Shown piece by piece: positions 20,496 to 53,825 of a DNA stretch of 64,000 nt (positions within the stretch are counted from its first letter, which is position 1; each line of letters opens with the position of its first letter). Source of the stretch: an uncultured delta proteobacterium. Lineage in GTDB: Bacteria; Myxococcota_A; Polyangia; Polyangiales; Houyiibacteriaceae. The stretch is taken from assembly GCA_963842915.1 (NCBI GenBank), contig CAWJII010000012.1, positions 53,320 to 117,319 on the forward strand, written 5' to 3'. A model generated the notes under the pieces. That model was not told where the DNA came from, ran no database searches, and worked only from the letters and a program-made list of their open reading frames with translations. The position numbers and the translations under genes are program-made.

Positions 20496-20509
20496 TAGAA
20501 CGTGTTCTA
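20496..20509. promoter_or_regulatory. KstR-type operator between divergent hsaA and amidohydrolase
   Basis: TAGAACGTGTTCTA matches TnnAACnnGTTnnA; overlaps a minus-strand TGGACA-N17-TAGAAC promoter-like pair. Confidence 0.8.
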
Positions 20510-20586
20510 GCCTACGGGCTGGGACATGTCCAGCAGGCTCATGCAAACATAGGGCTCTGCCTGGGACTCGGAAAGGACGCGATTTC

Positions 20587-21459
20587 ATGCCGATACCGAC
20601 TGGCCTCAAAGCCATCGACCTGATGATGAACATCCCCGACGGCGACCCCACCGCCTGGTACGAGTTCATCAAGCCGCTGCTGCTCGATGAGGAGAGCCGG
20701 AAAGTCTTCACGATGCCCGCCCAGTACATGTTCAAAGACATCCCCGAGATCGGCGAGCAGAAGGACTATGTCCAGTACGCCATCGGCGAGATGGACAAGT
20801 GGGGCATTCAGCAGGCGATGCTGGGCATTTCCGGGCCGAACTCCAGTAACCTCGAGGCTTGCCGCAAGTACCCCGAGCGCTTCTTCCCATCCTACGGCGC
20901 CAATCCGAACAACGGCATGGACGAGGTCCGAACGATTCGGAAGCTGCACAAGGAACATGGCCTCAAGGCCGTGACGGGATTCCCTTCGGGTCTATGTCCC
21001 CAAGTTCCACTCAACGACAAGAAGTACTACCCGATCTACGCTACCTGCGTTGACCTGGACATCCCCATTTGCCTCTGCGTGGGCGTCCCTGGCCCGCGTA
21101 TTCCGATGGCGCCGCAGAAGGTCGAGCACATCGACGAAGTGTGCTGGTTTTTCCCGGAGCTCAAGTTCGTCATGCGCCACGGCGGCGAGCCCTGGGTGGA
21201 CCTCGCGGTCAAGCTGATGCTCAAGTACCCGAACCTCTACTACAGCACGAGCGCCTTCGCGCCGAAGCACTACCCGAAGTCGATCATCCACTACGCAAAC
21301 ACGCGCGGAGCCGACAAGATCATGTATGCAGGATACTTCCCGATGGGGCTCTCGCTCGAGCGAATCTTCACCGACATGCAGAACGTGCCGTTCAAAGACC
21401 AAGTTTGGGCGAAGTTCCTCCGCGAAAACGCGATTCGGGTGTTCAAGCTGGACGAATAG
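20587..21459 (+). CDS. Amidohydrolase_2 family protein
   Basis: YPIYATCVDLDIPI, FPELKFVMRHGGEPW, YPNLYYSTSAFAPK, DKIMYAG, FLRENAIRVFKL. Confidence 0.85.
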   Translation: MPIPTGLKAIDLMMNIPDGDPTAWYEFIKPLLLDEESRKVFTMPAQYMFKDIPEIGEQKDYVQYAIGEMDKWGIQQAMLGISGPNSSNLEACRKYPERFFPSYGANPNNGMDEVRTIRKLHKEHGLKAVTGFPSGLCPQVPLNDKKYYPIYATCVDLDIPICLCVGVPGPRIPMAPQKVEHIDEVCWFFPELKFVMRHGGEPWVDLAVKLMLKYPNLYYSTSAFAPKHYPKSIIHYANTRGADKIMYAGYFPMGLSLERIFTDMQNVPFKDQVWAKFLRENAIRVFKLDE

Positions 21460-21464
21460 ACGGC

Positions 21465-21665
21465 TCAAATGGCCAAAGTGATTCCGAGCAGGAATACGAA
21501 CTGGACGCCGTAGCGCGTCTGGCTCGCGGTCTCGATCTAGAACCGAATCATTGGAACACCGAAGTCGACCCGGAGCTTGTTGTTCATCTTGTAGTTGAAG
21601 GTGAAAACGTCGAGCTGAGCGGCCAGCAAGAACCTGTAGTCGTCGCCGCCAGCTCGAAGCTGAGC
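21465..21665 (-). pseudogene. Probable 3' remnant of a beta-strand-rich (outer-membrane-like) protein gene
   Basis: Minus frame reads GGDDYRFLLAAQLDVFTFNYKMNNKLRVDFGVPMIRF*IETASQTRYGVQFVFLLGITLAI*, with mostly G/C-ending codons, one internal TAG (21537-21539) and no upstream start before rlmKL. Confidence 0.35.
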
Positions 21666-21670
21666 CCGCG

Positions 21671-23788
21671 TTACTTCCTGAGGAGGAAGGCTTGGAAGGG
21701 ATAGCGGGTGAAGTCTTCTGGGACGAACTGCTTGGTCGCGTCTTCGATTCGGAAGCGATTGTAAATGGATTCGTCGAGCTCGAAGCCGCGGGCGTGAGTC
21801 GTGAAGAGCAGCTCGCCCTTCTGGTCGAGCGAGCTCATGGCACTCTCGATCAGGCTCCGGTGGTCTTTGTGGATGTTGAAGTCACCCTTGCTCATCTTGG
21901 AGCGTGAGAAGGTGGGTGGGTTGATGAAAATCCAGTCGTAGCTGTTCCGATCTCTCGCAATCCAGCGGGTGGCGTCGTCGCGGATGAAGCGATGCTTCGC
22001 GGGATCCAGGCCGTTGGCTTCGAAATTCTTCTTGCCCCAGTCCAGATAGGTGTTCGATAGATCGACGCTACTGGTCTGCTTGGCCCCGCCCACTGCGGCA
22101 GCGACGCTGACCGAGCAGGTGTACGCAAAGAGGTTGAGCATGCGCTTTGCCTTGCAGTGTTCGTGAGCGTAGGCGCGAACCGCGCGGTGATCCAGGAACA
22201 GGCCGGTGTCGATTCGATCTTCCACGTTGACCACGAAGCGAAGCTCCCCTTCGCTCACGACCATGTCGCTTTCCTGTTGGGAGATGCGGGCGTACTGGTC
22301 GCCCTGCTCGTGTTTGCGCCGGACTTTCACGACCAGGTCGCTGGGATCAATCCCAAGCGCTGCGGGAAGCGTCAGCAATACATCTTGAACCCGCTGCTTG
22401 GCGCGGTCGTCGTCCGCGTCTCGTTCTTTCTGGAAAATGTGCACCACGGCTTTCGGACCGTAACGGTCGACCGCCACGTGATACTCGGGGATGTCGGCAT
22501 CGTAGATCCGGTAGCATTCGATGCCGTTGCGCTTAGCCCAGCGCCCCCACTTCTTCTTGTTTTTCTTGATGCGATTGGCGAACATCGACGCCTTCTCGCT
22601 CGGCTTTCGCCAGGCTGGCGCCCGGTCTGGGTCGTCGCCGGTTACGCCGCGCACGGGGATCTCGACGAGACGGCATTCGATCGCACCGTTATACAGAACG
22701 TGTCGTCGAACCGGTCGCAGGCCGAGGTGCTTCAGATTACCTCCGTGCGCCGCGAACACGTAGGCCGTCCATCCGTCGAAGGCGCGCTTCAGCGTATCCC
22801 CGAGCGACTGGTAGAAGAGAAACACAGTGCCCTCGTCGCCCAGTCGATGGCCGTACGGCGGATTGGACACGAGGATTCCGACATCCGCCGGTTTCTCGAT
22901 CGTGGAAAGCTCTTGGACCGCGAGCGACACATGCTGATCGACACCAGCGGCCGCCAAGTTCTCCCGAACCAGCGACAGGGCTTTGTCCGAGGCATCACAT
23001 CCGTAGATCCGCGCCGGGCATTGAGCCCTCCGAGCCGTCAAGGCCGCCGCTCGCTCGGCTGCAAAAGCGGCGTCGTCGTGCCTGAGCCAGCTCTCGAAGC
23101 CGAAGCGCTCCCGCAAGAGCCCGGGCGCGCAATTGGTCGCCATCAGCGCGCCTTCGATCAAGAAGGTTCCTGAGCCGCAAGTGGGGTCCATCAGCGCCAG
23201 GCCTTGTCGTGCTGCCTGAGGCCAATTCGCGAGGTACAGGATCGCTGCGGCCAAGTTCTCTTTGAGAGGCGCCTTGCCACCCGATTGCCGATAGCCGCGC
23301 CGGTGCAGTCCTTCCCCCGAAAAGTCGAGAGACAGCTCGTGCTTTCCTTCGCCAATGTGGAGATGCAGACGGATCGCCGGATTTCTCTTGTCGATGCTGG
23401 GACGCGTACCGGTGTGATCACGAAAGCTGTCGACGATGGCGTCCTTCGCGCGCTGCACCCAGTAGTGTGCTGGCCGCGAGCTCTTGGACGACTGAGAGCT
23501 GCCGATCGCGAAGGTCTGCGACGCGTCAAAATGCTCCCACCAGGCAACTCGACGAAGCCCTTCGTAAAGAGCAGTGTCGTCCGCAGCTTCGACCTCGACG
23601 AGCGGCAGCAACACCCGAGACGCGACGCGAGACCAGAGGCACAACCGATAGCCATCCCGAAGAGTGCCCCGCGCATGCACGGCCGTCGGGCGCAGATCGG
23701 CGACCTCGATGTCCAGATCACGCAGTTCCTGTGCCAGGACGTCCTCGCAACCCTTCGGGCAAGGGAGAACCCACCGAAATCGTTGCAC
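21671..23788 (-). CDS. rlmKL: Bifunctional 23S rRNA m2G2445/m7G2069 methyltransferase
   Basis: THUMP region, LHRRGYR, APLKENLAAAIL, DPTCGSGT, NPPYGHRLG, YRIYDADIPEY, DTGLFLDHR, LNLFAYT, VDLSNTYLDW, PPTFS. GTG start at 23788 is inferred. Confidence 0.92.
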   Translation of the reverse strand: MQRFRWVLPCPKGCEDVLAQELRDLDIEVADLRPTAVHARGTLRDGYRLCLWSRVASRVLLPLVEVEAADDTALYEGLRRVAWWEHFDASQTFAIGSSQSSKSSRPAHYWVQRAKDAIVDSFRDHTGTRPSIDKRNPAIRLHLHIGEGKHELSLDFSGEGLHRRGYRQSGGKAPLKENLAAAILYLANWPQAARQGLALMDPTCGSGTFLIEGALMATNCAPGLLRERFGFESWLRHDDAAFAAERAAALTARRAQCPARIYGCDASDKALSLVRENLAAAGVDQHVSLAVQELSTIEKPADVGILVSNPPYGHRLGDEGTVFLFYQSLGDTLKRAFDGWTAYVFAAHGGNLKHLGLRPVRRHVLYNGAIECRLVEIPVRGVTGDDPDRAPAWRKPSEKASMFANRIKKNKKKWGRWAKRNGIECYRIYDADIPEYHVAVDRYGPKAVVHIFQKERDADDDRAKQRVQDVLLTLPAALGIDPSDLVVKVRRKHEQGDQYARISQQESDMVVSEGELRFVVNVEDRIDTGLFLDHRAVRAYAHEHCKAKRMLNLFAYTCSVSVAAAVGGAKQTSSVDLSNTYLDWGKKNFEANGLDPAKHRFIRDDATRWIARDRNSYDWIFINPPTFSRSKMSKGDFNIHKDHRSLIESAMSSLDQKGELLFTTHARGFELDESIYNRFRIEDATKQFVPEDFTRYPFQAFLLRK

Positions 23789-23807
23789 CGTGTCGATGTG
23801 CCCTCGC

Positions 23808-24386
23808 CTACTCCGCCAAGAGGAGCTCGGCCGCCTTGTCCATGTCCGAGAGGAGCTGAGATGCGTCGTGCAAGCCACCAGCCCAACCGACAAACGAAGC
23901 AAACCAGACGTTCTGTAGAATCGAGGCGATGGTGCGCTCGCGTTCGTCGACGTCCCCGCCCCACTCTCCCTGCTGAGAAGCAGCCTCGCCGCGAATCGCA
24001 GCCATGACCATCGCGGTAATTAGAGCGTGGAAGCTCGCGACTCGCTCGGTGATGTTCGGGTCTCCGGATGCCAGCGACCGAACCAGGGCTTTTGCGAGAT
24101 TCGGCCGGCGCAAAAGCCCCTTGGTCAGCGCCGAGAAGACGAAGCGCACACGTTCTCGAGGGCCATCACCGGGAACAGGTTTCTTTCCGATTTTGGACAC
24201 GAGCTTTTCGCTCTCTTGCTCGAGCGCTGCGATGAGGATTTCTTCTTTGCTGGCAAAGCGCTTGTAAACCGTCCCGAGCGCAACTTGCGCGCTGGCCGCG
24301 ACATCGCGGAGCCGTACAGCCTGGTACCCGTCACGCTCTGCGAGCTCTACGGCTGTTTCAACGATACGTTTGGCTCGATCATCCAT
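23808..24386 (-). CDS. kstR: TetR family regulator, KstR-like
   Basis: HTH RIVETAVELAERDGYQAVRLRDVAASAQVALGTVYKRFASK resembles mycobacterial KstR as I recall it; C-terminal NVWFASFVGW; lies inside the sterol operon. Confidence 0.75.
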   Translation of the reverse strand: MDDRAKRIVETAVELAERDGYQAVRLRDVAASAQVALGTVYKRFASKEEILIAALEQESEKLVSKIGKKPVPGDGPRERVRFVFSALTKGLLRRPNLAKALVRSLASGDPNITERVASFHALITAMVMAAIRGEAASQQGEWGGDVDERERTIASILQNVWFASFVGWAGGLHDASQLLSDMDKAAELLLAE

Positions 24387-24388
24387 GG

Positions 24389-25360
24389 CTAATATCCAAC
24401 CTCTGCCTGGGGCAGATAGAACTTCTGATACCAGCGGCGCAGGGCTCCTACATCGCCATCGCCATCGCAGAGAATCGGTCGCGTTCGGTACTTCTTGTTT
24501 TCCCAGATTGCGATGTCTTCCTTGAAACCAACGATGATGTTCTCGCGGTATCGCTCTTGGAACTGCTCCTTGCCCTCTTTGACGTTCGAGATGTCAATCA
24601 TCGCACCAATTCGAACGTGAACTCGGCTCTCGTCGACGGGCGTGTGACACAGGAGCATGATGTTGGGGAGCACGCTCTGCATTTTCGTGAGCATGTAGCC
24701 AGGGCCATAGTACGTGGATTGAAGCTCGAACTGGTCTTCGCCTCCGCCACGCGGATAGGCAACCCCTTTGACGTTCTGAATGCCGATGTGGTCCTTGAAC
24801 TCGTTGCCGAACTCGTTGGCCCAGGTGCCGTGCACTGGTCCGAAGTGGCCCTTGTCCGCCAGGTTCTCGACTATTTCTTTGGGATGAGTCTTGATGTCGA
24901 TGAGCGCCGAGCCCCAGTCGGTCCAGCCGTCGCTGCCGTATTCGGGGATCTCGGGAATCTCCCAGTTCGGCTCCTCGCCCTCGAGATGGGCGTTCCACAT
25001 GAAGATGAGGCCGTTGTGCTCCTGCACCGGGTTGTTCTTGACGCAGGCGCGCGGCGGAATCCGTTTGGCGTACGGGACGTCCACGCACTTGCCGGTTTCA
25101 TCGAAGCGCCAGGCGTGAAACGGACACTGGATCGTCTCGCCGACGACTTTGCCCCCGTGTCCGAGGTGGGCACCAAGATGCGGGCAAAAGGCGTCGTGCA
25201 CGATCGCGGCGCCGCTGTCGCCTCGGTACAGGACCATGTCCCGGCCGAAGTACTTGATCGGCCGGACTTCGCCGACCGATAGCTCGGCCGAGACACCGAT
25301 GACGAACCATCCCCGCGGATAGCCAGGAAAAAGTTCCTCTTCTTCTCGTGCTTCGGGCAT
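24389..25360 (-). CDS. Rieske 2Fe-2S steroid oxygenase (KshA / cholesterol 7-desaturase-like)
   Basis: YPRGWF, CPHLGAHL...CPFHAW Rieske motif, mononuclear iron motif ENLADKGHFGPVH, DIAIWENK, LCDGDG, LRRWYQKFY. Confidence 0.85.
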   Translation of the reverse strand: MPEAREEEELFPGYPRGWFVIGVSAELSVGEVRPIKYFGRDMVLYRGDSGAAIVHDAFCPHLGAHLGHGGKVVGETIQCPFHAWRFDETGKCVDVPYAKRIPPRACVKNNPVQEHNGLIFMWNAHLEGEEPNWEIPEIPEYGSDGWTDWGSALIDIKTHPKEIVENLADKGHFGPVHGTWANEFGNEFKDHIGIQNVKGVAYPRGGGEDQFELQSTYYGPGYMLTKMQSVLPNIMLLCHTPVDESRVHVRIGAMIDISNVKEGKEQFQERYRENIIVGFKEDIAIWENKKYRTRPILCDGDGDVGALRRWYQKFYLPQAEVGY

Positions 25361-25393
25361 GGTTCCTCTCGGCTCTGGACTCAGCAAGCGCGG

Positions 25394-26998
25394 CTAGGCG
25401 CTCGCCTGATTGCGGGCGATCTCCTCGGCCCAGGTGTAGTCTGGTTTTCCGCTCGGCATGCGAGAAACCGTCTCGGTGATGGTGATCTGTCGCGGGACCT
25501 TGTAGCCCGCGATGTGCTTGCGGCAGTGCTCTTGCACTTGCTCGAGAGAAAGCTGCTGATTGTCCCGCGTGTTGAATACCGCCGCGACCTTGGATCCGAA
25601 GCGAGAGTCCGGCACCGCGACGACGAGCGCGTCGATGACCTGCGGGTGCGCCTTGAGCGCTTCTTCCACCTCTTCGGGGAAGACCTTCTCACCACCGGTG
25701 TTGATGCACTTGCTGCCCCGGCCGAGGAACGTGATACGGCCGTCTTCTTCGATGGTGGCGAAGTCGCCGGGTACGACCCAGCGCTTGCCATTGAACTCCT
25801 TGAAGCGCTCGGCGGTCTTCTCGGGGTCCTTGTAGTAGCCGAGTGGTAGGCGGCCCGAGCGGGCGACCATTCCGATTTGTCCTGAGCCTGGCTCGATCTG
25901 GTCACCTTTCTCGTCTAGGACCGTGACCTCATCGCCCATGTAGAACGAGGGGCGGTTCTCGTGGCTGTCCTCGTCGCCTGCGGCGCGCCCAAGGTCACCC
26001 GATTCGCTCGTCCCGAAGCTGTTGATGATCATCACGTCGGGAAGCAGCGCTTCGATCTCCTCCTGAATGCTCGCCGAGAGGATGGCGCCTGCCGATGCGA
26101 TCACCGCCAGATTCGACATGTCGTACTCGCCCGCTCGGAGCTCCTCGACCAGAGGGATCGCCATCGCATCGCCGACCAGAGAGAGAGTCGACACGTCTTG
26201 TTCGGCAACGAGCGAGAGGATGCGCTTGGCGTCGAAGCTGGGGCCGTGCTGAAGCACCAGTTTCCCACCGGTCATGTGGCAGATCCATTGTGTCCATTGT
26301 GCAGCGCCGTGGATGAAGGGCGCACAGGGCAGCATGGTCACCGTGTACCAGCCCTCCTTGGCTTGCTCGACCAGCTGTTCCGGAGACTCGACCGGATCAC
26401 CCCCAGGCGATCCGCCCTGAAGCCCTGTGAAAAACAGGTCCTCGTGCCGCCACATGACGCCCTTGGGCATACCCGTCGTCCCGCCGGTGTAGATGATGTA
26501 GAGGTCTTTGCCCGATCGGGGACCGAAGCCACGCTCCTCGGAGCCCTGCGCCAAGGCGGTCTCGTACTCGATCGATTCCTGGTCGGCGACGCCGTCGGCA
26601 CCGTCTTCAATCACGATGAGCGACTTGAGCGGCTCGAGGCCTTCCATTGCCTCGTTGATCACCGGCAGGAAGCGACGCTGGGTGATCACCCCGACGAGGT
26701 CTGCGTTCTCGATCATGTATCGAACTTCGGGGGCCACGAACCTGTAGTTCATGTTGATTCCGACCGCGCGAATCTTGAAGAGCGCCAGAATCGCTTCGAC
26801 GAACTCGTGGCCGTTGAATAGATGAAGGCCGACGTGGTTGCCGGGGCCGATGCCGCGGGACGTGAAGTAGTGCGCCAAGCGATTGGCCCGCTTGTCGAGG
26901 TCTGCGTATGTGTGGTGAACGTCGCCCGAGGCCAAGGCGAGATTGTCGGGAACTGTGTCCGCGATGGCTTCGTAAAGATCTGCTAGATTGTATTCCAT
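25394..26998 (-). CDS. fadD19: Acyl-CoA synthetase, FadD19-like steroid side-chain CoA ligase
   Basis: MEYNLADLYE, IYTGGTTGMPKGVMWRHED, LGYYKDPEKT, PGDFA, GRGSKCINTGGEKVFPEEVE. Confidence 0.78.
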   Translation of the reverse strand: MEYNLADLYEAIADTVPDNLALASGDVHHTYADLDKRANRLAHYFTSRGIGPGNHVGLHLFNGHEFVEAILALFKIRAVGINMNYRFVAPEVRYMIENADLVGVITQRRFLPVINEAMEGLEPLKSLIVIEDGADGVADQESIEYETALAQGSEERGFGPRSGKDLYIIYTGGTTGMPKGVMWRHEDLFFTGLQGGSPGGDPVESPEQLVEQAKEGWYTVTMLPCAPFIHGAAQWTQWICHMTGGKLVLQHGPSFDAKRILSLVAEQDVSTLSLVGDAMAIPLVEELRAGEYDMSNLAVIASAGAILSASIQEEIEALLPDVMIINSFGTSESGDLGRAAGDEDSHENRPSFYMGDEVTVLDEKGDQIEPGSGQIGMVARSGRLPLGYYKDPEKTAERFKEFNGKRWVVPGDFATIEEDGRITFLGRGSKCINTGGEKVFPEEVEEALKAHPQVIDALVVAVPDSRFGSKVAAVFNTRDNQQLSLEQVQEHCRKHIAGYKVPRQITITETVSRMPSGKPDYTWAEEIARNQASA

Positions 26999-27010
26999 CA
27001 GTAACTCCCG

Positions 27011-28159
27011 CTATCGCTTCGAGCTCACGATCCACATCGCGAAGAACTGCGAGCCTCCTCCGTACGCGTGACCGAGGGCCACCTTGGCGCCGTCTACTTG
27101 GTGCCGCTCTGCCGTGCCGCGAACCTGGCGCGCGGCTTCTGCGAATCGGAGCATACCACTGGCTCCAATCGGATTGGTGCACATGACCCCGCCGGACATG
27201 TTCCAAGGCATTTCGCCGCCGATCTTCGTCTTGCCTTCCATCGTCATCTTCCAGCCTTCACCTTCTTCGGCGAAGCCCAGATTCTCGAGCCACATCGGCT
27301 CAAACCAGGAAAACGGAACATAGACCTCTGCGCAGTCGATCTCTTTGAGCGGATTGCGGATGCCAGCCTCGTCGTAGGCGTCCTTGGCGCAAAGCTTACC
27401 CGCCGCGGGGTTCACCTGATCACGCCCGGCAAAGAAGGTGCGTTCCGTTCGGACCGAGGTTCCCTTCACCCAGGCCGGGTTCTTCACGCGGCCTGCGTGC
27501 TTTTCGCTCACCAGCACCATGGCGACAGCACCGTCGGACGACGGACATGTCTCCGAATAACGAATCGGATCCCAGAGCATCGGCGAGGCCTTCACCTGTT
27601 CGAGCGTCTGGTCGAGGTGCAGGTGGGCGTTTGGGTTGAGCAAGCCGTTTTGGCGATCCTTGACGGCGACCATGCAACCAGTATCCGGATGCGCGTCGGC
27701 GCGGCGGATGTAGGAACGGATGAGGGGCGCAAAGTAGCCCCCCGCGCCTGCGACGAGTTGTGGCTGGAAGGGGATCGCCGGCGAGAGCGCCCACATCGCG
27801 TTGGCCTCGCTTTGCTTCTCGAACGCGAGAGTGAGCACCTTCTCGTGCACCCCGCCCTGAACGAGGTGTGAGGCCACCACGGCAGTCGAGCCGCCCACCG
27901 AACCGGCGGTGTGGACGCGGAAGATCGGCTTCCCGGCCGCGCCGAGCGCATCCGACAGCCAGAGCTCCGGCATCATGACGCCTTCGAACATGTCGGGCGC
28001 AGTGCCGATGACGATGGAATCGATGTCCTTCCATGTCATGTCCGCATCTTGCAAGGCGCGAAGCGCAGCGTCTCGAACTAGGCCGGGAATCGACAGGTCG
28101 CGCCGGCTCTCGCGGTGCTTGGTCTGACCGATCCCGATGACCGCACAATGCTCAGCCAT
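27011..28159 (-). CDS. ltp3: Thiolase-like aldolase Ltp3
   Basis: Own start MAEHCAVIGIGQT in TAATG overlap with the true ltp4 stop; APDMFEGVMMPE, RVHTAGSVGGST, ETCPSSDGA, GHAYGGGSQFF. Confidence 0.85.
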   Translation of the reverse strand: MAEHCAVIGIGQTKHRESRRDLSIPGLVRDAALRALQDADMTWKDIDSIVIGTAPDMFEGVMMPELWLSDALGAAGKPIFRVHTAGSVGGSTAVVASHLVQGGVHEKVLTLAFEKQSEANAMWALSPAIPFQPQLVAGAGGYFAPLIRSYIRRADAHPDTGCMVAVKDRQNGLLNPNAHLHLDQTLEQVKASPMLWDPIRYSETCPSSDGAVAMVLVSEKHAGRVKNPAWVKGTSVRTERTFFAGRDQVNPAAGKLCAKDAYDEAGIRNPLKEIDCAEVYVPFSWFEPMWLENLGFAEEGEGWKMTMEGKTKIGGEMPWNMSGGVMCTNPIGASGMLRFAEAARQVRGTAERHQVDGAKVALGHAYGGGSQFFAMWIVSSKR

Positions 28160-30123: not shown

Positions 30124-30150
30124 GGCTGTGTTCCCGTTCGAAGTGGCTGC

Positions 30151-30486
30151 TCAGCCCTGGGGGAAGAACTTCTGCATCTTCTGGGCGAGGGCGATGTTGC
30201 CCTTCACCTTGAGCTTGCGTGTCAGGAAAGCCTTGCGGCCGTCGAGGTCGCCGTTCGCCATCTCGACGAACTTGGCTGCGTCCATCATCACGTTGAGGGT
30301 TGGCTTCTCGACGCCGCCGGTCTCCACGCCCTTGAACTCTCCGTCCGCGATCGTGATGGTCCACTCTCCGCCGCCGTCACCGCTCAGGCTGTACTGGATT
30401 GTGGCGTTCACGCCCTTGGCCTGCTCGGCCAGGAAACGATCGGCAAGGGTGTCGAAGTACTCTGCTGTGTTGGCTACTTTGGCCAT
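30151..30486 (-). CDS. SCP2 sterol-binding domain protein
   Basis: IQYSLSGDGGGEW, LDGRKAFLTRKLKVKGNIALAQKM; GGAGG SD before ATG 30486. Confidence 0.9.
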   Translation of the reverse strand: MAKVANTAEYFDTLADRFLAEQAKGVNATIQYSLSGDGGGEWTITIADGEFKGVETGGVEKPTLNVMMDAAKFVEMANGDLDGRKAFLTRKLKVKGNIALAQKMQKFFPQG

Positions 30487-30529
30487 GTCCACCTCCCCGG
30501 TTCCGGGTAGAAAAAGGGTCAACTAGAAG

Positions 30530-43503: not shown

Positions 43504-43506
43504 GCC

Positions 43507-44727: not shown

Positions 44728-44752
44728 ATTGGTGTAGAATCGGCGTCGAATC

Positions 44753-46027: not shown

Positions 46028-46038
46028 GGACAGGACGC

Positions 46039-46941
46039 TTGAGCAACACGCAGATTCAGATCGAGAGCCGGACTTTCTGGCGCTTGGCGGCAGCCACAGT
46101 TGCCGTGCTGGTGCCGCTGAACTGGAGCTGGCACGTCTGGGGCCGGCAGATCCCGGGCTCGCTTGCGCTCTACATCATCGCCGGCGGCTTGCTGTACTTC
46201 GGGCTGCTTCGCTGGCTCACGGGCGTTCGCTTTTCCGAGATCTCCTACGAAGCGCGTTTCGTGGTCATCAGCTCGATGGTGTTACTGATCCTTTTCTTGG
46301 CGTTCGGACGCTCGAACACCTATCAGCGGCTCTTCGCTCAGTTCGTCCCGAAAGACATCAGGACGCCGCTGTTTGGCTTCATGTACTTCGCGGTCTGCAG
46401 TGTCCTCTTGCGCCTCCAGATCCCGTATCTGCTCGTGCGCTTCAAACTGCGGCAGCTACCGAGCGAATATGGCTACGTCCTTCGAGGCGGAACTCGAATG
46501 CGCTGGGTCTACTTCGGCCTGTTCGTCGTGATGATTCCAATGGTGATTTGGGCATCCACCCTCCCCGACTTTCAAGCCAGCTACCCCCAGACACGCGGCA
46601 TAGTCAGAGGCAACGAGGCCTCGATTCGGCTCTTCATCCTCTATCACGCCGCGTACTTCATGGTATTCGTCTCGGGCGAAAGCTTCTGGCGCGGCTACAT
46701 GACCTTCGGCCTCGGCCGCGACCTCGACGTCAGCGCACTCCCGTGGATGGTCATGATGTACAGCATCGGCCACTACGGAAAACCGATCCTCGAGGTGAAC
46801 GCCTCGATCGTCGCCGGCTTCATCCTCGGCTACCTGGCCCTCCGCCACCGCTCGTTCTTTCTAGGCGCGCTCCTCCACTGGTCGATCGCTCTCAGCATGG
46901 ACTTGGCGGTGCTCTGGCAGCGTGGAGTGACCTGGCACTAG
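46039..46941 (+). CDS. CPBP (CAAX protease/Abi-like) intramembrane glutamic protease
   Basis: Multiple TM segments; ESFWRG, HYGKP..E, GALLHW; TTG start after AGGA. Confidence 0.8.
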   Translation: MSNTQIQIESRTFWRLAAATVAVLVPLNWSWHVWGRQIPGSLALYIIAGGLLYFGLLRWLTGVRFSEISYEARFVVISSMVLLILFLAFGRSNTYQRLFAQFVPKDIRTPLFGFMYFAVCSVLLRLQIPYLLVRFKLRQLPSEYGYVLRGGTRMRWVYFGLFVVMIPMVIWASTLPDFQASYPQTRGIVRGNEASIRLFILYHAAYFMVFVSGESFWRGYMTFGLGRDLDVSALPWMVMMYSIGHYGKPILEVNASIVAGFILGYLALRHRSFFLGALLHWSIALSMDLAVLWQRGVTWH

Positions 46942-46960: not shown

Positions 46961-46974
46961 TGAAACATGTTTCA
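46961..46974. promoter_or_regulatory. KstR-type operator upstream of the oxidoreductase-SDR-ACAD-ipdF operon
   Basis: Perfect palindrome TGAAACATGTTTCA between TTGCAG (46951) and CAGTCT (46973). Confidence 0.82.
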
Positions 46975-46986: not shown

Positions 46987-48009
46987 GTGGCGGAGGCTAA
47001 TCGGCAGATTTGTTTGAGAAAGCGGCCTGTTGGAGTGCCGGCTGTCGGAGATTTTCAAGCCGGTGAAAGCGCCGTGGGGGTGCCTGGGCCAGGGGAAGTC
47101 CTTCTCAAGAATCTGTATCTGTCGATCGACCCTGCCATTCGCGGATGGATGAGCGATGCGAAGTCGTACCTGCCGCCCATTGAGATCGGCGAGCCGATAC
47201 GGAGCGGGACGCTTTCGCAAATCATCGAATCCAATGCCGAAGGCTGGCCGGTTGGGCAGATCGTCCAGGCGCTTGCTGCCTGGGAGTCGTATAGCGTGGT
47301 TTCGTCGCGAATGCTTCATGGCAAGGTGAAGACCATCGACGGCATTCCCCTCTCGACGATGTTGAGCGTGCTCGGTGGAACCGGGCTGACCGCGTACTTT
47401 GGTTTGCTCGAGGTCGGTAGGCCGAAGGAAGGCGAGACCGTTCTCGTGTCCGCGGCAGCCGGCGGCGTAGGATCGATCGTCGGACAGATCGCGAAGGTTA
47501 GAGGATGCAGGGCGATCGGGCTGACGGGCAGCGACGAGAAATGCGCCTGGCTCACCCACGAGCTCGGCTACGACGCGGCGATCAACTACAAGACGTCGAA
47601 CCTGCGGCTTGCACTCGAGGAGGCATGCCCCGAGGGCATCGACGTATTTTTCGACAGCGTTGGCGGCGCGATCCTCAACACCGCGCTGAGCCGCCTCAAC
47701 TATCACGGTCGCGTGGTCGTCTGCGGTGCAATCTCTCAGATCAACGAGCCCGAGCTGCCTCCGGGCCCGAGCAACTACGTACAGCTCCTCGCCAAGAGCG
47801 CCCGTATGGAAGGCTTCACCACCCTGGATTTCGCGCGCCGCTACGACGAGGCCCGCTCAGACCTCGCGCAGTGGATCGGCGGGGGTAAGATTCGCTATCG
47901 CGACGACATCGTCGAAGGCCTCGATGAGGCTCCGTCGCACTTGCTTCGACTATTCAGCGGTGAACATCGAGGAAAATTGATGGTCAAGTTGGCCGACGCA
48001 GAGGTTTGA
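46987..48009 (+). CDS. NADP-dependent oxidoreductase (prostaglandin reductase/CurA-like MDR ene-reductase)
   Basis: YLSIDPAIRGWM, TGLTAYFGL, VSAAAGGVGS, GIDVFFDSVGG, CGAISQ, GKLMVK. Confidence 0.9.
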   Translation: MAEANRQICLRKRPVGVPAVGDFQAGESAVGVPGPGEVLLKNLYLSIDPAIRGWMSDAKSYLPPIEIGEPIRSGTLSQIIESNAEGWPVGQIVQALAAWESYSVVSSRMLHGKVKTIDGIPLSTMLSVLGGTGLTAYFGLLEVGRPKEGETVLVSAAAGGVGSIVGQIAKVRGCRAIGLTGSDEKCAWLTHELGYDAAINYKTSNLRLALEEACPEGIDVFFDSVGGAILNTALSRLNYHGRVVVCGAISQINEPELPPGPSNYVQLLAKSARMEGFTTLDFARRYDEARSDLAQWIGGGKIRYRDDIVEGLDEAPSHLLRLFSGEHRGKLMVKLADAEV

Positions 48010-48011
48010 GA

Positions 48012-48917
48012 ATGACTGGCATTTGTGATGGACGGGTAGTGATCGTAACGGGCGCAGGGCGTGGCATCGGCCGGGAGCACGCGCTCGAGCTGGCCCGGCA
48101 GGGCGCGAAAGTCGTCGTCAACGATCTTGGCGTGAGCAACAGCGGCGAAGGCGGCGGCCAGGGGCCGGCCGAAGAAGTCGTTCAAGAGATTCGCGCCCTG
48201 GGTGGAGAGGCGCTGGCCAACGGCGCCGACGTTGCGGACTGGAAACAGACCGAGGCGCTGGTTCAACAAGCGATCGACGAGTTCGGGCGCCTCGACGCGG
48301 TGGTGAACAACGCGGGCTTCGTCCGAGACCGCATGTTCGTCAGCTGCAGCGAAGACGAATGGGATGCGATCATTCGCGTCCACCTCAAGGGGCACTTCTG
48401 CGTCGCCCGGCACGCGGCCGCGTATTGGCGAGGACAGGTCAAGGCCGGAGAAGAAGTCGACGCGCGAATCATCAACACCAGCTCTGGAGCTGGGGTGCTC
48501 GGAAGCGTTGGCCAGTCGAGCTACTCCGCCGCGAAAGCAGGCATCGCCACATTGACCCTGGTGCAAGCCGCTGAGCTCGGCCGCTACGGGATCACCGCAA
48601 ACGCGATTTGCCCGATCGCGCGCACCCGCATGACCGAGGGCGCGTTCGCGGACGCGATGAAGGCGCCCGAGGAAGGCTTCGACGAGAACGACCCAGCCAA
48701 CGTCTCGCCCTTCATCGCCTGGCTGGCCAGCTCGCAGTCGCGTGAAGTCACCGGTCGCGTTTGGGAGGTCTACGGTGGAACGGTCACCGTCTTCGATGGT
48801 TACCGCCGCGAGCAGACGATGAATATCGGCAAGCGCTGGGACGCATCCGAGCTGGGGCCGGCGGTGAAAGACCTGCTCTCGAAGGCTCAGCCTCCGGTCA
48901 AGGTGTACGGCACATGA
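48012..48917 (+). CDS. SDR oxidoreductase (Rv3548c-like)
   Basis: MTGICDGRVVIVTGAGRGIG, VNNAGFVRDRMF, VHLKGHF, ARIINTSSGAG, YSAAK. Confidence 0.85.
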   Translation: MTGICDGRVVIVTGAGRGIGREHALELARQGAKVVVNDLGVSNSGEGGGQGPAEEVVQEIRALGGEALANGADVADWKQTEALVQQAIDEFGRLDAVVNNAGFVRDRMFVSCSEDEWDAIIRVHLKGHFCVARHAAAYWRGQVKAGEEVDARIINTSSGAGVLGSVGQSSYSAAKAGIATLTLVQAAELGRYGITANAICPIARTRMTEGAFADAMKAPEEGFDENDPANVSPFIAWLASSQSREVTGRVWEVYGGTVTVFDGYRREQTMNIGKRWDASELGPAVKDLLSKAQPPVKVYGT

Positions 48918-49696
48918 GCAACCCCCTCGACTTCAGCGGTCGGGCGGTTCTGATCACCGGCGGAAGCCGCGGGATCGGAAAAGGCATCGCCGAAGCGTTC
49001 CTCGGAGCGGGCGCAGACGTCGCCGTATGCGGGCGCAGAGAGCCAGACGAGCTTCCGAGCGCAGGCGGCAAGAGCGCGGTCTTCGTGAGCGCCGATGTTC
49101 GGGATGCCGAGCAGGTCGAAAGGATGGTGAACGAAGTGGTCGAGCGCCTCGGCCGTCTCGATGTACTGGTGAACAACGCCGGCGGTGCGCCCTTCGCCGA
49201 GGCAGCCACGGCTTCTCCACGATTCTCGGAGAAGATCATTCAGCTGAACCTGACGGCTGCCCTTCACTGCGGGCAACAGGCCAATCGCGTCATGCAGGAC
49301 CAGGACTCCGGCGGCTCGATCATCAACATCGCCAGTGTGTCCGGCGTGCGCCCTTCCCCTGGCACGGCGGCTTACGGCGCGGCCAAGGCAGGATTGATCA
49401 ACCTGAGCGCCACGCTTGCCATCGAATGGGCCCCCAAGGTTCGCGTCAATTCAATCGCCGCAGGCCTGATTCGCACTGAGCAAGCCCATCTGCACTACGG
49501 CGACGAGGCGGGCATCGCGCGCGTTGCGGCGACGGTGCCTCTACAACGTCTCGGCACGCCCGAGGACATCTCGGGGGCGTGCATGTTCTTCGCCTCGTCG
49601 CTCTCGGCCTATGTGAGCGGAGCCAATCTCGTTTTGCACGGTGGGGGAGAAACACCCGCGTTTCTTTCAGCCGCTAGCGTCAATCAAGGAGACTGA
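48914..49696 (+). CDS. SDR oxidoreductase (Rv3549c-like)
   Basis: TGGSRGIG, NNAGGAP, RPSPGTAAYGAAK, EWAPKVRVN, HGGGE. Confidence 0.85.
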   Translation: MSNPLDFSGRAVLITGGSRGIGKGIAEAFLGAGADVAVCGRREPDELPSAGGKSAVFVSADVRDAEQVERMVNEVVERLGRLDVLVNNAGGAPFAEAATASPRFSEKIIQLNLTAALHCGQQANRVMQDQDSGGSIINIASVSGVRPSPGTAAYGAAKAGLINLSATLAIEWAPKVRVNSIAAGLIRTEQAHLHYGDEAGIARVAATVPLQRLGTPEDISGACMFFASSLSAYVSGANLVLHGGGETPAFLSAASVNQGD

Positions 49697-49700
49697 GCGA

Positions 49701-50840
49701 ATGGAGTTTTCGTTCTCGGAAGATCAGGACGAGCTGAGAAGAGCCGCACGCCGGTTCTTGGAGGTCGCGTCCTCGGAAGAGCGCGTGCGGAGCGCGATGG
49801 AGACCGAACGAGGTTACGATCAGGCGACCTGGGAACAGCTCTCCGAAGAACTCGCGTGGACGGCGCTGACGATTCCCGAGGAGTACGGCGGCCTCGGCAT
49901 GAGCTACCTCGACCTGCACCCTCTGATGGAGGAAATGGGCCGGGCGCTTCTCTGCTCGCCGTTCTTCTCCACGATTTGTCTAGGAGCCAACGCGCTTCTG
50001 CTGGGTGGCAGCGAAGAGCAGAAGGAACGCTACCTACCTGGCATCGCAGCCGGCGAAACGACGGCGACTTTGGCGTTCGCCGAGAGAAACAACCGGATGA
50101 ACGCCGTGGGGGTGGAAGCGACACACGCGAAGAGCGGTTCCGGCTACATCCTTCGCGGCGACAAAAGCTACGTTCTCGACGGCCACACTGCCGACCTGCT
50201 CATCGTCGCGGCGCGCTCCGCGGGCAGCGCGGGCGCCGAAGGCGTGAGCTTGTTCCTAGTGCCGGGCGACACGGACGGGCTGAAGCGCAGCTGGCTGCCC
50301 ACGATGGATCAGACCCGGCGCTTGGCTTCTGTCGAGCTGCGTGACGTGACGGTTGCTGACGATGCACTACTCGGTCAAGAAGGCAAAGGCTGGGAGCTCT
50401 GCGAGCGAACTTTGGACCTGGCGCGCATCGCCCTTGCCGCCGAGCAGGTGGGCGCGGCCGAGATGTGCCTCGACATGTCGGTCGAGTACGCGAAGGTACG
50501 GAATCAATTTGGCAGGCCGATCGGGTCGTTCCAGTCGATCAAGCACAAGTGCGCCGACATGCTGACGATGGTCGAGTCCGCGCGCTCGGCGGCCTTCTAT
50601 GCAAGCGCCCTTGCCGCCCAGGGCAATGAAGATCTCGAAGAAGCGGCCTCGAGCGCGAAGGCCTATTGCTCCGATACGTTCTTTCATTGCGCCGCCGAGA
50701 CCATCCAGATTCACGGAGGGATCGGGTTCACCTGGGAGCACGCGGCGCACATCTACTTCAAGCGCGCCAAGGCAACCGAGATTCTCTTCGGTGATCCCTC
50801 TTTTCACCGCGAACGAGTCGCGCAACGCATGGGTTTGTGA
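49701..50840 (+). CDS. Acyl-CoA dehydrogenase, beta-type subunit (probable FadE33/IpdE2 partner)
   Basis: MEFSFSEDQ, MDQTRR, RNQFGRPIGSFQSIKH, IQIHGGIGFTWEH. Confidence 0.85.
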   Translation: MEFSFSEDQDELRRAARRFLEVASSEERVRSAMETERGYDQATWEQLSEELAWTALTIPEEYGGLGMSYLDLHPLMEEMGRALLCSPFFSTICLGANALLLGGSEEQKERYLPGIAAGETTATLAFAERNNRMNAVGVEATHAKSGSGYILRGDKSYVLDGHTADLLIVAARSAGSAGAEGVSLFLVPGDTDGLKRSWLPTMDQTRRLASVELRDVTVADDALLGQEGKGWELCERTLDLARIALAAEQVGAAEMCLDMSVEYAKVRNQFGRPIGSFQSIKHKCADMLTMVESARSAAFYASALAAQGNEDLEEAASSAKAYCSDTFFHCAAETIQIHGGIGFTWEHAAHIYFKRAKATEILFGDPSFHRERVAQRMGL

Positions 50841-52015
50841 TGGAGCTACAGCTAAGCAGAGAAGAAGAGGCGTTTCGGCAAGAGGCGCGTGCCTGGTTGA
50901 AAGAGCAGCTCAACGGCCCCTTCAAGGACTTGCAGGGGCGCGGTGCTTCAGGCGACCAGGACACCTATGTCGACGAGCGGATCGCCTGGGGCAAAGTCAT
51001 GGGCGCGGCGGGCTGGAACTGCATCGGCTGGCCCAAGGAGTTCGGGGGGCGCGGCTGTACGATCAAGGAAGAGGCTGTCTTCAACGAGGAGTACGTCCGC
51101 GCGAACGGACCAGGCAACGTCGGACACATTGGCGAAACGCTTCTCGGCCCTACCTTAATTCACTTCGGCTCGCCGGAGCTGCAGAAGCGCTTTTTGCCGC
51201 CCATTGTCTCCTGTGACGAAATCTGGTGTCAGGGCTACTCGGAACCCGGTGCGGGCTCTGATCTGGCAAACGTGCAGACGAAGGCCGAGCTGGTCGGAGA
51301 CGAATGGATCATCGAGGGGCAGAAGATCTGGACCTCGGGCGCACAGTACTCGGACTGGTGCTTCGTCCTGTGCCGCACGGACCCGGAGGCACCGAAGCAC
51401 CGGGGCATCAGTTACATCCTGGTTCCGATGAAGCAGGACGGCGTTGAGGTGCGGCCGATCAAGCAGATGGGCGGAAGTGCCGAGTTCGCGGAGGTGTTCT
51501 TCGACGGTGCCAAGGCTCACAAGGACCACGTCGTCGGTGGCGTCAACAAGGGCTGGAAAGTAGCGATGGGCACCCTCGCCTTCGAGCGCGGCGCATCGAC
51601 GCTGGGGCAGCAGTACCTCTTCCAGAAGGAGTTCGAGCAAGTCGTCGAGGTCGCTAAGCGAACAGGTGCCGCGAAGGACCCGGTCTTCCGCCAGCGCATC
51701 GCAAACGCCGGGATCGGACTCAAGATCATGCGGGTCAACGCTCTGCGTATGCTGGAGCACGAAGGCGCCGACCTGAACCGTGAAGCGCTGATCAGCAAGC
51801 TCTACTGGTCGAACTGGCATCGCGACCTCGGAAAGCTCGCGATGGACTTGCTCGGCCCGGAAGCAGAGCTCCTCGATGGCGCACCCTACGAGCTCACCGC
51901 CATGCAGAAGTGGTATCTCTTCGCGCGAGCCGACACGATTTACGCCGGCTCGAATCAGATTCAACGAAACATCATCGGCGAACGAGGACTCGGGCTGCCG
52001 AAGGAGCCACGATGA
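50840..52015 (+). CDS. fadE30: Acyl-CoA dehydrogenase FadE30 (IpdE1)-like
   Basis: HIGETLLGPTL, WCQGYSEPGAGSDLANV, TLAFERG, KLYWSNWHRDLG, LFARADTIYAGSNQIQRNII, LGLPKEPR. Confidence 0.8.
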   Translation: MELQLSREEEAFRQEARAWLKEQLNGPFKDLQGRGASGDQDTYVDERIAWGKVMGAAGWNCIGWPKEFGGRGCTIKEEAVFNEEYVRANGPGNVGHIGETLLGPTLIHFGSPELQKRFLPPIVSCDEIWCQGYSEPGAGSDLANVQTKAELVGDEWIIEGQKIWTSGAQYSDWCFVLCRTDPEAPKHRGISYILVPMKQDGVEVRPIKQMGGSAEFAEVFFDGAKAHKDHVVGGVNKGWKVAMGTLAFERGASTLGQQYLFQKEFEQVVEVAKRTGAAKDPVFRQRIANAGIGLKIMRVNALRMLEHEGADLNREALISKLYWSNWHRDLGKLAMDLLGPEAELLDGAPYELTAMQKWYLFARADTIYAGSNQIQRNIIGERGLGLPKEPR

Positions 52016-52794
52016 CCAGCAAACCCACGTACGTCGGCGGGCACGGCCTGCTCGAAGGCAAGACCGTTCTCGTCACCGCTGCTGCCGGCACAGGCATCGG
52101 GTTCGCAACAGCCATTCGCTGCGCCGAAGAAGGCGCCTCGGGCCTGATGATCAGCGACATCCACGAGCGGCGGCTCGGCGAAGCGGCCGACAAGATCGAA
52201 GCCGAGACCGGGGTTCGGCCCGAAACGATCATCTGCAACGTCACCAAAGAAGACGACGTCCAGGCGATGTTCGAGTTTGCCGTGGAGAAGATGGGGCACG
52301 TCGACGTCCTGATGAACAACGCCGGGCTCGGGGGCTACGCCAAGATTGTCGACATGACCGACGAGCAGTGGAATCTCGTGCTCGACGTCACCCTCAACGG
52401 TTGCTTTCGCTGCACCCGCGCCGCCCTCAAGCACATGATGCCACGCGGACAGGGCGCAATCGTCAACAACGCCTCGGTGCTCGGCTGGCGCGCGCAAGAA
52501 GGGCAATCTCACTACGCCGCTGCGAAGGCGGGCGTCATGGCGCTGACCCGGTGTGCGGCGATCGAAGCCGCCGAAGGCAACGTGCGCATCAACTGCGTCT
52601 CGCCATCCCTCGCCATGCATCCGTTCCTGCAGAAGGTCACCCCGCCGGGCCTGCTCGAAGAGCTCAAGAAGCGCGAAGCGTTCGGCCGTGGCGCCGAGCC
52701 CTGGGAGATTTCAAACGTCATGGTTTTCTTGGCGAGCGACTACAGCTCGTACATGACGGGCGAGGTGCTGTCGGTATCGAGCCAGCGGGCCTGA
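52012..52794 (+). CDS. ipdF: SDR IpdF (Rv3559c)-like
   Basis: GHGLLEGKTVLVTAAAGTGIG, SDIHERRL, NNASVLGWRAQ, YAAAK, AMHPFL, SYMTGEVLSVSSQRA. Confidence 0.83.
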   Translation: MTSKPTYVGGHGLLEGKTVLVTAAAGTGIGFATAIRCAEEGASGLMISDIHERRLGEAADKIEAETGVRPETIICNVTKEDDVQAMFEFAVEKMGHVDVLMNNAGLGGYAKIVDMTDEQWNLVLDVTLNGCFRCTRAALKHMMPRGQGAIVNNASVLGWRAQEGQSHYAAAKAGVMALTRCAAIEAAEGNVRINCVSPSLAMHPFLQKVTPPGLLEELKKREAFGRGAEPWEISNVMVFLASDYSSYMTGEVLSVSSQRA

Positions 52795-52796
52795 AG

Positions 52797-53774
52797 CTAG
52801 GCGGCACTCATCCGAGCCTGCCAGGCGTCGGAATAGCGCAACATGTACCGGCGGATGAGCGGAGAGAACATCCGTGCCAGCGGCCTGGTGAATCGCGATG
52901 CTTTGCGCATTTGTCCGATGAATTCCGCGAAGCTGATGCGCTGGTAGCCCAGGAGCGATTGGCTTTCTTCGGTGTCGAGCCAATCGCAGTAGTAGGCGCC
53001 TCTACCATACGCTTCCGCGGGGAACTGCCCCACCCCGGTGGCGTCAAACATGGCGCCGTAGAACTCGCGGAAGGTCAGTCGACAATTTTCGCCGCCCCCG
53101 ATCATCAGCGTCTTGCAGATCGCCTGCGGGTTTTCGATCGCACGGACCTGTCCCAGTGCGACGTCTTCGGGATGCACCCATTCGAGGCGCGTGTCCGGGT
53201 TGATGCTGAATAGCAGCCGAAAGACATCCGGCGAGAGGTCACCCGCGGCTGCTTTCACACCGACCGACACCCCGATTCGGAAGATGACGTACGGTAGGCC
53301 GGAGTCGCGGAGAAGCTGCTCGCACTCGGCTTTGTTCGCGGTGTAGGTGTCGGTCGCAACGGCCGGATCATCGCCCGTCAGAGGCGGTCCACCGGGGACG
53401 CGTGGGCCGCACACAGACAAGGACGAGGCGAAGACGATCACCGGCGGATGCTCCTTGCGTCTCATCGCATCGAGGATGTTCTTCGTACCGCCCACATTGA
53501 CCGCATAGGCCAGGTCCGGATGGTTCTCAGAGACAGGCGCCAGAACGCCTGCGTTGTGAATGATCGCATCGCAGTCGGCGACGGCAGGGGCGATGTCAGC
53601 CGGCGATCGGATGTCTCCCCATACGATTCGAACCCGGTCGTCAAACTGCCGGGCGGCCCTTTGATTTCGCCGACTCGGCAGGTCGAACGCGATGACCGAA
53701 TGCCCCTCCTTCAAGAGTCGCTCGACTCCCGCCAGCCCAAGCCGGCCAAACGCCCCAGTTACCAACACGCGCAT
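52797..53774 (-). CDS. NAD-dependent epimerase/dehydratase (extended SDR, 3beta-HSD-like)
   Basis: MRVLVTGAFGRLG, IIHNAG, VNVGGT, YTANK. Confidence 0.85.
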   Translation of the reverse strand: MRVLVTGAFGRLGLAGVERLLKEGHSVIAFDLPSRRNQRAARQFDDRVRIVWGDIRSPADIAPAVADCDAIIHNAGVLAPVSENHPDLAYAVNVGGTKNILDAMRRKEHPPVIVFASSLSVCGPRVPGGPPLTGDDPAVATDTYTANKAECEQLLRDSGLPYVIFRIGVSVGVKAAAGDLSPDVFRLLFSINPDTRLEWVHPEDVALGQVRAIENPQAICKTLMIGGGENCRLTFREFYGAMFDATGVGQFPAEAYGRGAYYCDWLDTEESQSLLGYQRISFAEFIGQMRKASRFTRPLARMFSPLIRRYMLRYSDAWQARMSAA

Positions 53775-53811
53775 CCGCGCAGGCTGACCTGCGGCAGCGC
53801 CCGCTTCAAAT

Positions 53812-53825
53812 TGAAACACGTTCTT
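53812..53825. promoter_or_regulatory. KstR-type operator (one mismatch) upstream of LLM-fno-cofEDC
   Basis: TGAAACACGTTCTT; overlaps the -35 of TTGAAA (53811)-N17-TAGGGT (53834). Confidence 0.65.

Follow-up and report, generated by a model that had tools for sequence, protein, structure and literature searches.

The KstR/KstR2 pair of TetR-family repressors is the textbook model for the staging of bacterial cholesterol breakdown, and the genes controlled by KstR2 matter for the toxicity of CoA-thioester intermediates. The present analysis concerns a set of KstR-type operator sites (boxes), together with the gene of a KstR-like TetR repressor, in a 64-kb stretch of DNA. This stretch, referred to as the window, covers positions 53320-117319 of contig C12 in a 4.59-Mb assembly (G000; 16 contigs, 99.94% complete), and the Polyangiales/Myxococcota placement of the genus is taken from source labels, not from a phylogeny. 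The KstR motif, as given by Kendall 2007 (PMC1995591), is the 14-bp palindrome TnnAACnnGTTnnA, and the KstR2 motif, as given by Kendall 2010 (PMC3068626), is AnCAAGnnCTTGnT. According to PMC3068626 and PMC5380842, the regulon of KstR2 (Rv3557c) comprises 15 genes for HIP (C/D-ring) catabolism, and the regulon genes are listed in the latter paper (Crowe 2017). Steroid degraders are reported by Bergstrand 2016 (PMC4810484) among Actinobacteria and among alpha-, beta- and gammaproteobacteria, and in its passages on this subject KstR2 is mentioned for actinobacteria only. Myxococcota are mentioned just in passing in the relevant passages of PMC13739741 and PMC12789469. No report of KstR from a non-actinobacterial host, or of steroid breakdown by Myxococcota, came up in the literature search, and such organisms may be listed in comparative-genomics supplements.

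When compared with the KstR of Mycobacterium and Rhodococcus (Rv3574/MSMEG_6042 type), the system in the window has the same basic features, being a TetR repressor with a TetR_C_20 domain, a palindrome of the TnnAACnnGTTnnA type and a box with the repressor's own gene behind it. The host differs, as by its source labels it is not an actinobacterium, and so does the reach of the boxes. Here KstR-type boxes precede the echA20-ipdABC-fadA6 operon and an operon of short-chain dehydrogenase/reductase (SDR), acyl-CoA dehydrogenase (ACAD) and ipdF-like genes, whereas the Mycobacterium loci examined have KstR2 boxes and no KstR box there; in addition, the F420 biosynthesis genes may belong to the regulon by way of box 5 of the window. 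Much of the gene content is that of the KstR2 regulon (echA20, ipdAB, ipdC, fadA6, ACADs, SDRs and fadD3), yet no KstR2 orthologue is found, nor any KstR2 box at these genes; KstR-type boxes stand on most of them, and fadD3 has neither type of box. When considering the proteobacterial steroid regulators, the likeness is that aerobic 9,10-seco pathway genes occur outside Actinobacteria, whereas the regulator and the operator are here of the actinobacterial KstR type. The main claim is a sequence-based regulon prediction: the system is most likely a variant of the known KstR regulon, extended to C/D-ring operons in a lineage without KstR2.

KstR-type boxes and the operons behind them

The initial annotation had described five intergenic KstR-type sites in this region, four of them preceded by AAG, and all five are found at the positions given for them. 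Four, at 20496, 30530, 38306 and 46961, are exact matches to TNNAACNNGTTNNA, and the fifth, at 53812 (TGAAACACGTTCTT), has a single mismatch to the 14-bp pattern; the preceding trinucleotide is AAG at four sites and AAT at the fifth. The boxes and the genes behind them are the following.

20496-20509, no strand: KstR-type box 1, TAGAACGTGTTCTA, in the divergent spacer between the hsaA-like operon (minus) and an amidohydrolase_2 gene (plus); matrix score 29.0
30530-30543, no strand: KstR-type box 2, TGAAACATGTTCTA, heading the minus-strand operon from SCP2 to the KstR-like gene; score 34.7
38306-38319, no strand: KstR-type box 3, TAGAACGCGTTTCA, 28 nt upstream of the echA20 start codon; score 27.2
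46961-46974, no strand: KstR-type box 4, TGAAACATGTTTCA, heading the plus-strand CurA-like reductase/SDR/ACAD operon; score 32.4
53812-53825, no strand: KstR-type box 5, TGAAACACGTTCTT, between a 3beta-hydroxysteroid dehydrogenase (3beta-HSD)/epimerase-like gene (minus) and a gene for an F420-dependent luciferase-like monooxygenase (LLM) of the Rv3520c type (plus)
13341-20401, minus strand: box 1 operon, with hsaA-like and hsaE/G/F-like genes, an ACAD pair and an SDR, by profile matches
24389-30522, minus strand: side-chain/ring-B operon of box 2, followed by the KstR-like TetR gene
30151-30522, minus strand: SCP2, box 2 operon
29215-30123, minus strand: ChsH2-like, box 2 operon
27011-29215, minus strand: Ltp-thiolase fusion, box 2 operon
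25394-26998, minus strand: FadD19-like, box 2 operon
24389-25360, minus strand: KshA-like, box 2 operon
23808-24386, minus strand: KstR-like TetR repressor (192 aa), the final steroid gene of the box 2 operon, 2 nt after the KshA-like gene
31126-38277, minus strand: C/D-ring (HIP) operon of box 3, with echA20, ipdA, ipdB, ipdC/FabK-like, two ACADs and a fadA6-like thiolase
46987-52794, plus strand: box 4 operon, with a CurA-like reductase, SDR PRK07791, SDR PRK07856, an ACAD pair and SDR PRK07831

The three SDRs of the box 4 operon (PRK07791, PRK07856 and PRK07831) are presumably the counterparts of the Rv3548c/49c-type and ipdF-type enzymes.

The four exact matches are the only ones in the window, where 0.42 are expected, and none of 100 dinucleotide shuffles of the window reaches four. 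The class of sites with one mismatch is not enriched when taken alone (14 found, 8.2 expected; 14 are reached in 3 of 100 shuffles). Box 5, which belongs to this class, has a matrix score of 22.7 and is within the top 22 sites of the genome despite its mismatch. Across the whole genome, the tighter pattern T[AG][AG]AACNNGTT[CT][CT]A has 20 occurrences spread over 9 contigs, compared with a mean of 0.6 and a maximum of 3 in ten Markov-1 simulated genomes and with 2 occurrences in the reversed genome. The columns that this pattern leaves free are also informative: the centre is purine-pyrimidine in 39 of the 40 half-sites, and A is found at -2 in 33 and at -3 in 25 of them. The genome-wide box consensus reads AAnTRRAACRYGTTYYAnTT.

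When the genome is scanned with the corresponding matrix, 82 sites score at least 8. At the top of this range there is a clean gap, with 22 sites scoring at least 21.5 and the next one 18.9. Judged by the called genes, 13 of the 22 top sites are intergenic, as are 15 of the 60 weaker hits. Seven further top sites are separated by 0-8 nt from a called gene start that falls in the box or next to it, because the box contains an ATG or GTG at which the gene caller began the gene, and the family alignments of these genes start 14-39 residues later. One top site sits 40 nt inside a called start, and one, the echA20 box, falls in a spurious antisense open reading frame (ORF) that overlaps the family-verified ipdA and echA20. 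The top sites stand at the 5' ends of genes, mostly ahead of steroid and lipid catabolic genes. This enrichment and placement support one real operator family of KstR type.

Boxes 1-4 are found at orthologous places in 7 of 7 relatives, and box 5 is found in five of the seven at a score of at least 14. The synteny of the HIP operon, whose profile scores include 393 bits for PRK07938 and 707 bits for PRK07801, is kept in all seven. The echA20 gene is present in 37 of 40 congeners and in each of the 30 genomes that are at least 90% complete (G000 included). The genes orf167 and echA20 are separated by a 51-nt spacer that contains box 3. All 30 genus loci have this box with its first position at -42 relative to the echA20 start, and no other site scoring at least 10 is found within 900 nt upstream of echA20 in these loci, 28 of which are of full length. 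In the genus alignment, the box and the TTGACC hexamer 7 nt upstream of it are invariant or nearly so, and the flanks are variable. A strong box is also located just before echA20-ipdABC...fadA6 in two distant loci of metagenome-assembled genomes (MAGs), of an uncultured proteobacterium (L054) and of a member of the Kofleriaceae (L096), at 59-76% protein identity. In both of these genomes a KstR-like gene is present and no KstR2 orthologue is found. The FadA6 protein of the window is 75-76% identical to Streptomyces and Kofleriaceae MAG proteins. In Zavarzinia marina there is no KstR-like hit.

The KstR-like repressor and the search for KstR2

The genome has 21 TetR_N hits, only one of which, at 23808-24386, is in the window, in agreement with the initial annotation, in which no second TetR was seen here. 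The best NCBIfam model of this protein is KstR (NF033703; 124 bits), and its top four PDB hits are Mycobacterium KstR chains (5cw8, E 4.3e-22, residues 3-191), followed by unrelated TetRs at 5e-9. Its recognition-helix stretch is similar to that of Mycobacterium KstR. With Pfam, both TetR_N (PF00440, 47.6 bits) and TetR_C_20 (PF17925, 47.1 bits) are above their cut-offs, the latter being what we take to be the KstR-type C-terminal domain. The assignment as a KstR-like protein is supported by these matches. The protein is present in 24 of 24 congeners searched (77-94% identity, two hits being partial); elsewhere in the order, two of the 16 other families have it. Its near homologues (79-88% identity) carry NCBI names of Polyangiales, Myxococcota, Myxococcales or Deltaproteobacteria MAGs. 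The nearest protein-atlas clusters of RlmKL, encoded next to the TetR, are mostly labelled Pseudomonadota, a weaker indication that was disregarded in favour of these names.

The genes of the box 2 operon are closely packed, with inter-ORF gaps of 27, -1, 12, 6-33 and 2 nt, from which we infer that they are cotranscribed. Autoregulation of the TetR is plausible because its gene ends this box-headed operon. Seven congeneric genomes were examined over 40-60 kb each, and all seven have this operon with a box at its head and the TetR gene at its end. Six loci of more distant TetR homologues (39-47% identity) were also compared, and in five of them (L197-L200 and L150; not L151) the TetR gene is preceded by a box at a distance of up to about 100 nt. 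The autoregulated repressor that had been proposed at 23808-24386 is in this way made plausible at the sequence level.

The KstR2 motif AnCAAGnnCTTGnT occurs 18 times in the genome, with 16 occurrences inside called genes and two intergenic ones (contigs C6 and C10); it does not occur on contig C12, and the earlier statement that the region has no KstR2 box holds for this whole contig. The pattern itself performs as expected in positive controls, where it is found between the expected genes in two Mycobacterium loci (L117 and L123), in a MAG (L124) and in Lentzea (L113). In three of these loci (L117, L113 and L124), the boxes picked by the genome's own KstR matrix are solely outside the KstR2-regulon genes. 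In the Streptomyces loci (among L045-L124), a KstR2-like TetR adjoins fadA6, and no match to the KstR2 or the KstR pattern is seen; the Streptomyces operator probably differs from both patterns.

For the search for a KstR2 orthologue, queries were taken from 80 public loci around fadA6 homologues. A TetR gene is found directly upstream on the same strand in 47 of the 80, all of them actinomycete records, and one of these fadA6-adjoining proteins (from L117) matches the KstR2 structure 4w97 in the PDB at E 6.7e-103. Six of the 47 proteins, taken as actinobacterial KstR2 orthologues, were run with phmmer against all genome frames of at least 100 aa. The best scores of the six queries (39.6, 41.6, 40.0, 49.8, 54.6 and 40.0 bits) point to four different paralogues and can be compared with the 241 bits between the Mycobacterium and Rhodococcus KstR2 proteins. 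No KstR2 orthologue is thus found in this 99.94% complete genome, and no KstR2 is found that would control the ipd operons.

The individual candidates were rejected as follows. The best KstR2-like candidate, L014, is FadR/YsiA-like (1.4e-31 to FadR, compared with 5e-10 to KstR2), and L013 is FasR-like; L018, which has neither a FadR- nor a FasR-like match, was also rejected as KstR2. For L013, L018 and L022 there is no KstR2 hit in the PDB at 1e-9 or 1e-7, in a check that left out L016 and L026. The Pfam domain TetR_C_24, which we take to be a marker of KstR2, gives weak secondary hits only, in FadR- and FasR-like proteins, and was discarded as a marker. No model named KstR2 appeared in the NCBIfam scan of the other 20 TetRs, which says nothing either way.

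Predicted regulation and its alternatives

In the predicted mechanism, a dimer of the KstR-like TetR would bind the 14-bp palindrome TRRAACRYGTTYYA with its A-rich flanks, overlapping or abutting the core promoters of about 20 operons, and binding would block RNA polymerase. The targets in the window would be the hsaA operon, the repressor's own operon, echA20-ipdABC-fadA6, the SDR/ACAD/ipdF-like operon and the pair of 3beta-HSD-like and F420-dependent LLM genes. By analogy with actinobacterial KstR, the repressor would come off the DNA on meeting a CoA thioester derived from a steroid. What is observed are the sites with their enrichment, placement and conservation, the homology and the lack of KstR2; binding, repression, inducer and operon extents are predictions of this scheme. 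Upstream of four of the boxes there are -35-like hexamers: TGGACA 17 nt before box 1 (in the hsaA orientation), TTGACG 17 nt before box 2, TTGACC 7 nt before box 3 and TTGCAG 4 nt before box 4. The hexamers before boxes 1-3 are kept in all eight genomes aligned, and that of box 4 is kept in the seven genomes that give a row (G008 gives none). With these spacings, the box would coincide with the -10 position or be part of the spacer, where a repressor would be expected to block the polymerase. We give a probability of about 0.75 to the reading that the KstR-like TetR represses some 20 box-headed operons, the C/D-ring operons included, with the fadD3 operon outside the regulon.

Several observations weigh against this reading. 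The TetR is about 29% identical to Mycobacterium KstR (counted from the alignment), and its 124 bits are under the NCBIfam KstR equivalog cut-off of 280 bits; it is therefore a divergent relative and is not filed as an equivalog. A consensus sigma-70 scan finds no promoter-like site at any of the five boxes, so that the promoter hexamers described for each of them are seen only as the conserved -35-like hexamers before four. The genes are crude calls made within this analysis (coding density 0.89), with the one spurious antisense ORF mentioned above. In two MAGs (G059 and G061) there is a KstR-like gene and yet no box in their 21-kb ipd loci. No matrix hit of at least 8 is found in the spacer 38833-38998 before the fadD3 operon, and a fadD3 box is absent from 7 of 7 relatives (at a score of at least 14) and from 30 genus loci (at a score of at least 10). 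Likewise, two of the six KshA-like genes, on contigs C10 and C7, have no box. Finally, contigs from RNA libraries of two studies (38085-38391 and 38241-38503, without differences) span orf167, box 3 and echA20; such contigs show no start, strand or level and may include DNA, and the parts they leave uncovered carry no meaning. The bridging contigs fit read-through from a box-free upstream promoter, or DNA carried into the library.

The initial annotation had assigned the whole pathway to one operator family, at the same time noting that fadD3 has no obvious box. The first statement is retained for the C/D-ring operons, as the echA20-ipd operon and the SDR/ACAD/ipdF-like operon have KstR-type boxes that are conserved across the genus, and it is too wide for the pathway as a whole, in view of the box-free fadD3 operon and KshA-like genes; the second agrees with what is found in the spacer, in the relatives and in the genus loci. 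The features at this place are the following.

38999-46941, plus strand: fadD3 operon, with FadD3, an SDR, orf131, a CasG-like ligase, a thiolase, a pyridoxal phosphate (PLP)-fold protein and a CPBP protease
38329-38832, minus strand: orf167, just upstream of box 3 and divergent from fadD3
38887-38899, no strand: palindrome TGAGGAATCCTCA in the 166-nt orf167-fadD3 spacer, partly conserved across the genus

FadD3 scores 765 bits, above its cut-off, and is encoded by a single copy in the genome. The 167-aa orf167 product, encoded between fadD3 and echA20, is 46-69% identical in seven relatives. Its reading frame varies in a codon-like manner across the aligned genus loci, and neither Pfam nor NCBIfam assigns it to a family. 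The palindrome TGAGGAATCCTCA may be bound by another factor, or it may form a small hairpin. The pattern TGAGGNNNCCTCA has two matches genome-wide, that is, one besides the palindrome in the spacer, and a second regulon built on it was rejected on this count.

Control of everything by one regulator is a plausible conjecture. In its furthest form, one KstR-type repressor would have taken over both tiers, and the box-free fadD3 operon would supply at all times the enzyme needed to form the inducer. What such a repressor senses would be HIP-CoA, or else side-chain and HIP CoA thioesters alike, and F420 synthesis would be co-induced via box 5. We regard this extension of the reading as tentative and rather doubtful.

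A two-tier arrangement that persists in another form is the alternative that survives best, and we hold it to be unlikely. KstR-type boxes would in this case gate the ipd and SDR operons, with an unrelated second regulator at the orf167/fadD3 promoter controlling entry into C/D-ring degradation and perhaps driving read-through into echA20. This would account for a fadD3 operon that is box-free here and in the relatives, and it draws on the partly conserved and nearly unique palindrome TGAGGAATCCTCA in the spacer, on the RNA-library contigs that bridge orf167, box 3 and echA20, and on the PaaX-like regulator gene downstream of the box at C12:31219. However, no regulator gene adjoins fadD3, the arms of the palindrome are short, and neither a cognate factor nor a regulon is found for it (2 genomic matches). 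The RNA contigs, for their part, give no start or strand and may be DNA.

It is also conceivable, at a very low probability, that the boxes are bound by a different regulator, such as the TetR encoded at C3:185667-186335, and that the window TetR has other targets. The C3 protein is the second-best hit of the KstR model (51.8 bits), and its gene is 4-7 kb from two boxes on contig C3. Its best solved homologue is, however, the Thermus FadR-type protein 3ang, not KstR, and no box adjoins its gene, whereas the gene of the window-type TetR, or the operon it belongs to, stands behind a box in all 7 relatives and in 5 of the 6 distant loci. That the palindromes are promoter or structural elements read by no repressor can practically be dismissed: at two promoters the half-site TAGAAC follows a -35-like hexamer at a distance of 17 nt, and it might act as a -10 element there, but the sites have full dyad symmetry and the same motif as the characterised KstR operators, their distance to the -35-like hexamer varies (4, 7 and 17 nt), and they are restricted to steroid and lipid genes.

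Box-headed genes elsewhere and the biology of the genus

The predicted repression by the KstR-like TetR extends to genes outside the window, and these are again largely steroid genes. Boxes precede a KstD-like gene (an operon on contig C13, with an F420H2-dependent quinone reductase), a second KstD-family flavoprotein gene, three further KshA-like genes together with a KshB/PaaE-like reductase gene, and a second hsaA/hsaC set. Genome-wide, four of the six KshA-like genes are box-preceded, and two HsaA-like genes stand behind boxes. An hsaD-like gene is box-preceded, with an hsaC-like gene upstream of that box. Other boxes are found before genes for an HsaB/HpaC-like reductase, for a ChsH2-like protein with Ltp, for an ACAD pair, for a thiolase with a FadJ-like protein, for a cytochrome P450 with a globin and for an aldehyde dehydrogenase, and before a wax-ester synthase operon and a FabK-like gene. 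One strong site, C14:853, is at a contig end, among ORFs without a family.

On contig C12 itself, outside the window, the strong box at C12:31219 has pdxJ on one side and, on the other, a PaaX-like regulator gene (C12:31278-32069) with an S33 hydrolase gene after it; the PaaX-like protein could be a second regulator within the regulon. On the side of pdxJ, the operon also includes a sulfotransferase gene and an SDR gene. On contig C4, two identical boxes (C4:112117 and C4:112132, 15 nt from start to start) stand ahead of an operon of kshA-like, hsaA-like, hsaC-like and kshA-like genes. This operon is divergent from the gene of a 764-aa sulfatase, which hints at the use of sulfated sterols.

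In the window, the plus-strand side of box 5 starts with the LLM of the Rv3520c subfamily, which is followed by npdG-cofE-cofD-cofC. These plus-strand F420 genes, from the LLM to cofC, abut or overlap downstream of box 5. With cofH, cofG and a second LLM on the minus strand, a full F420 gene set (window positions 53827-61203) adjoins the steroid cluster. By its position, box 5 may co-regulate F420 synthesis with sterol catabolism. At the other end, the initial 13.3 kb of the window is filled with ilv/leu biosynthesis genes, not steroid genes. The housekeeping gene rlmKL (21671-23902, minus strand) comes directly after the TetR gene on the same strand. With such neighbours as rlmKL and the ilv/leu genes, the steroid cluster sits within core chromosome.

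At least half of the words sampled from the stretch 36000-41000 are present in 16 metagenome runs of sediment, salt marsh, marine sediment and soil, from 8 studies. By the boxes and the genes behind them, sterol degradation is likely in this abundant sediment genus of uncultured bacteria, and the box motif can be used for finding sterol regulons in metagenomes. With the same enzymes and a KstR operator outside Actinobacteria, no KstR2, and KstR boxes on C/D-ring operons, this is a natural system that allows the need for two tiers, and the ligand of a one-tier repressor, to be tested. If one repressor does serve both tiers, the division of labour between KstR and KstR2 would be an actinobacterial specialisation and not a requirement of the pathway.

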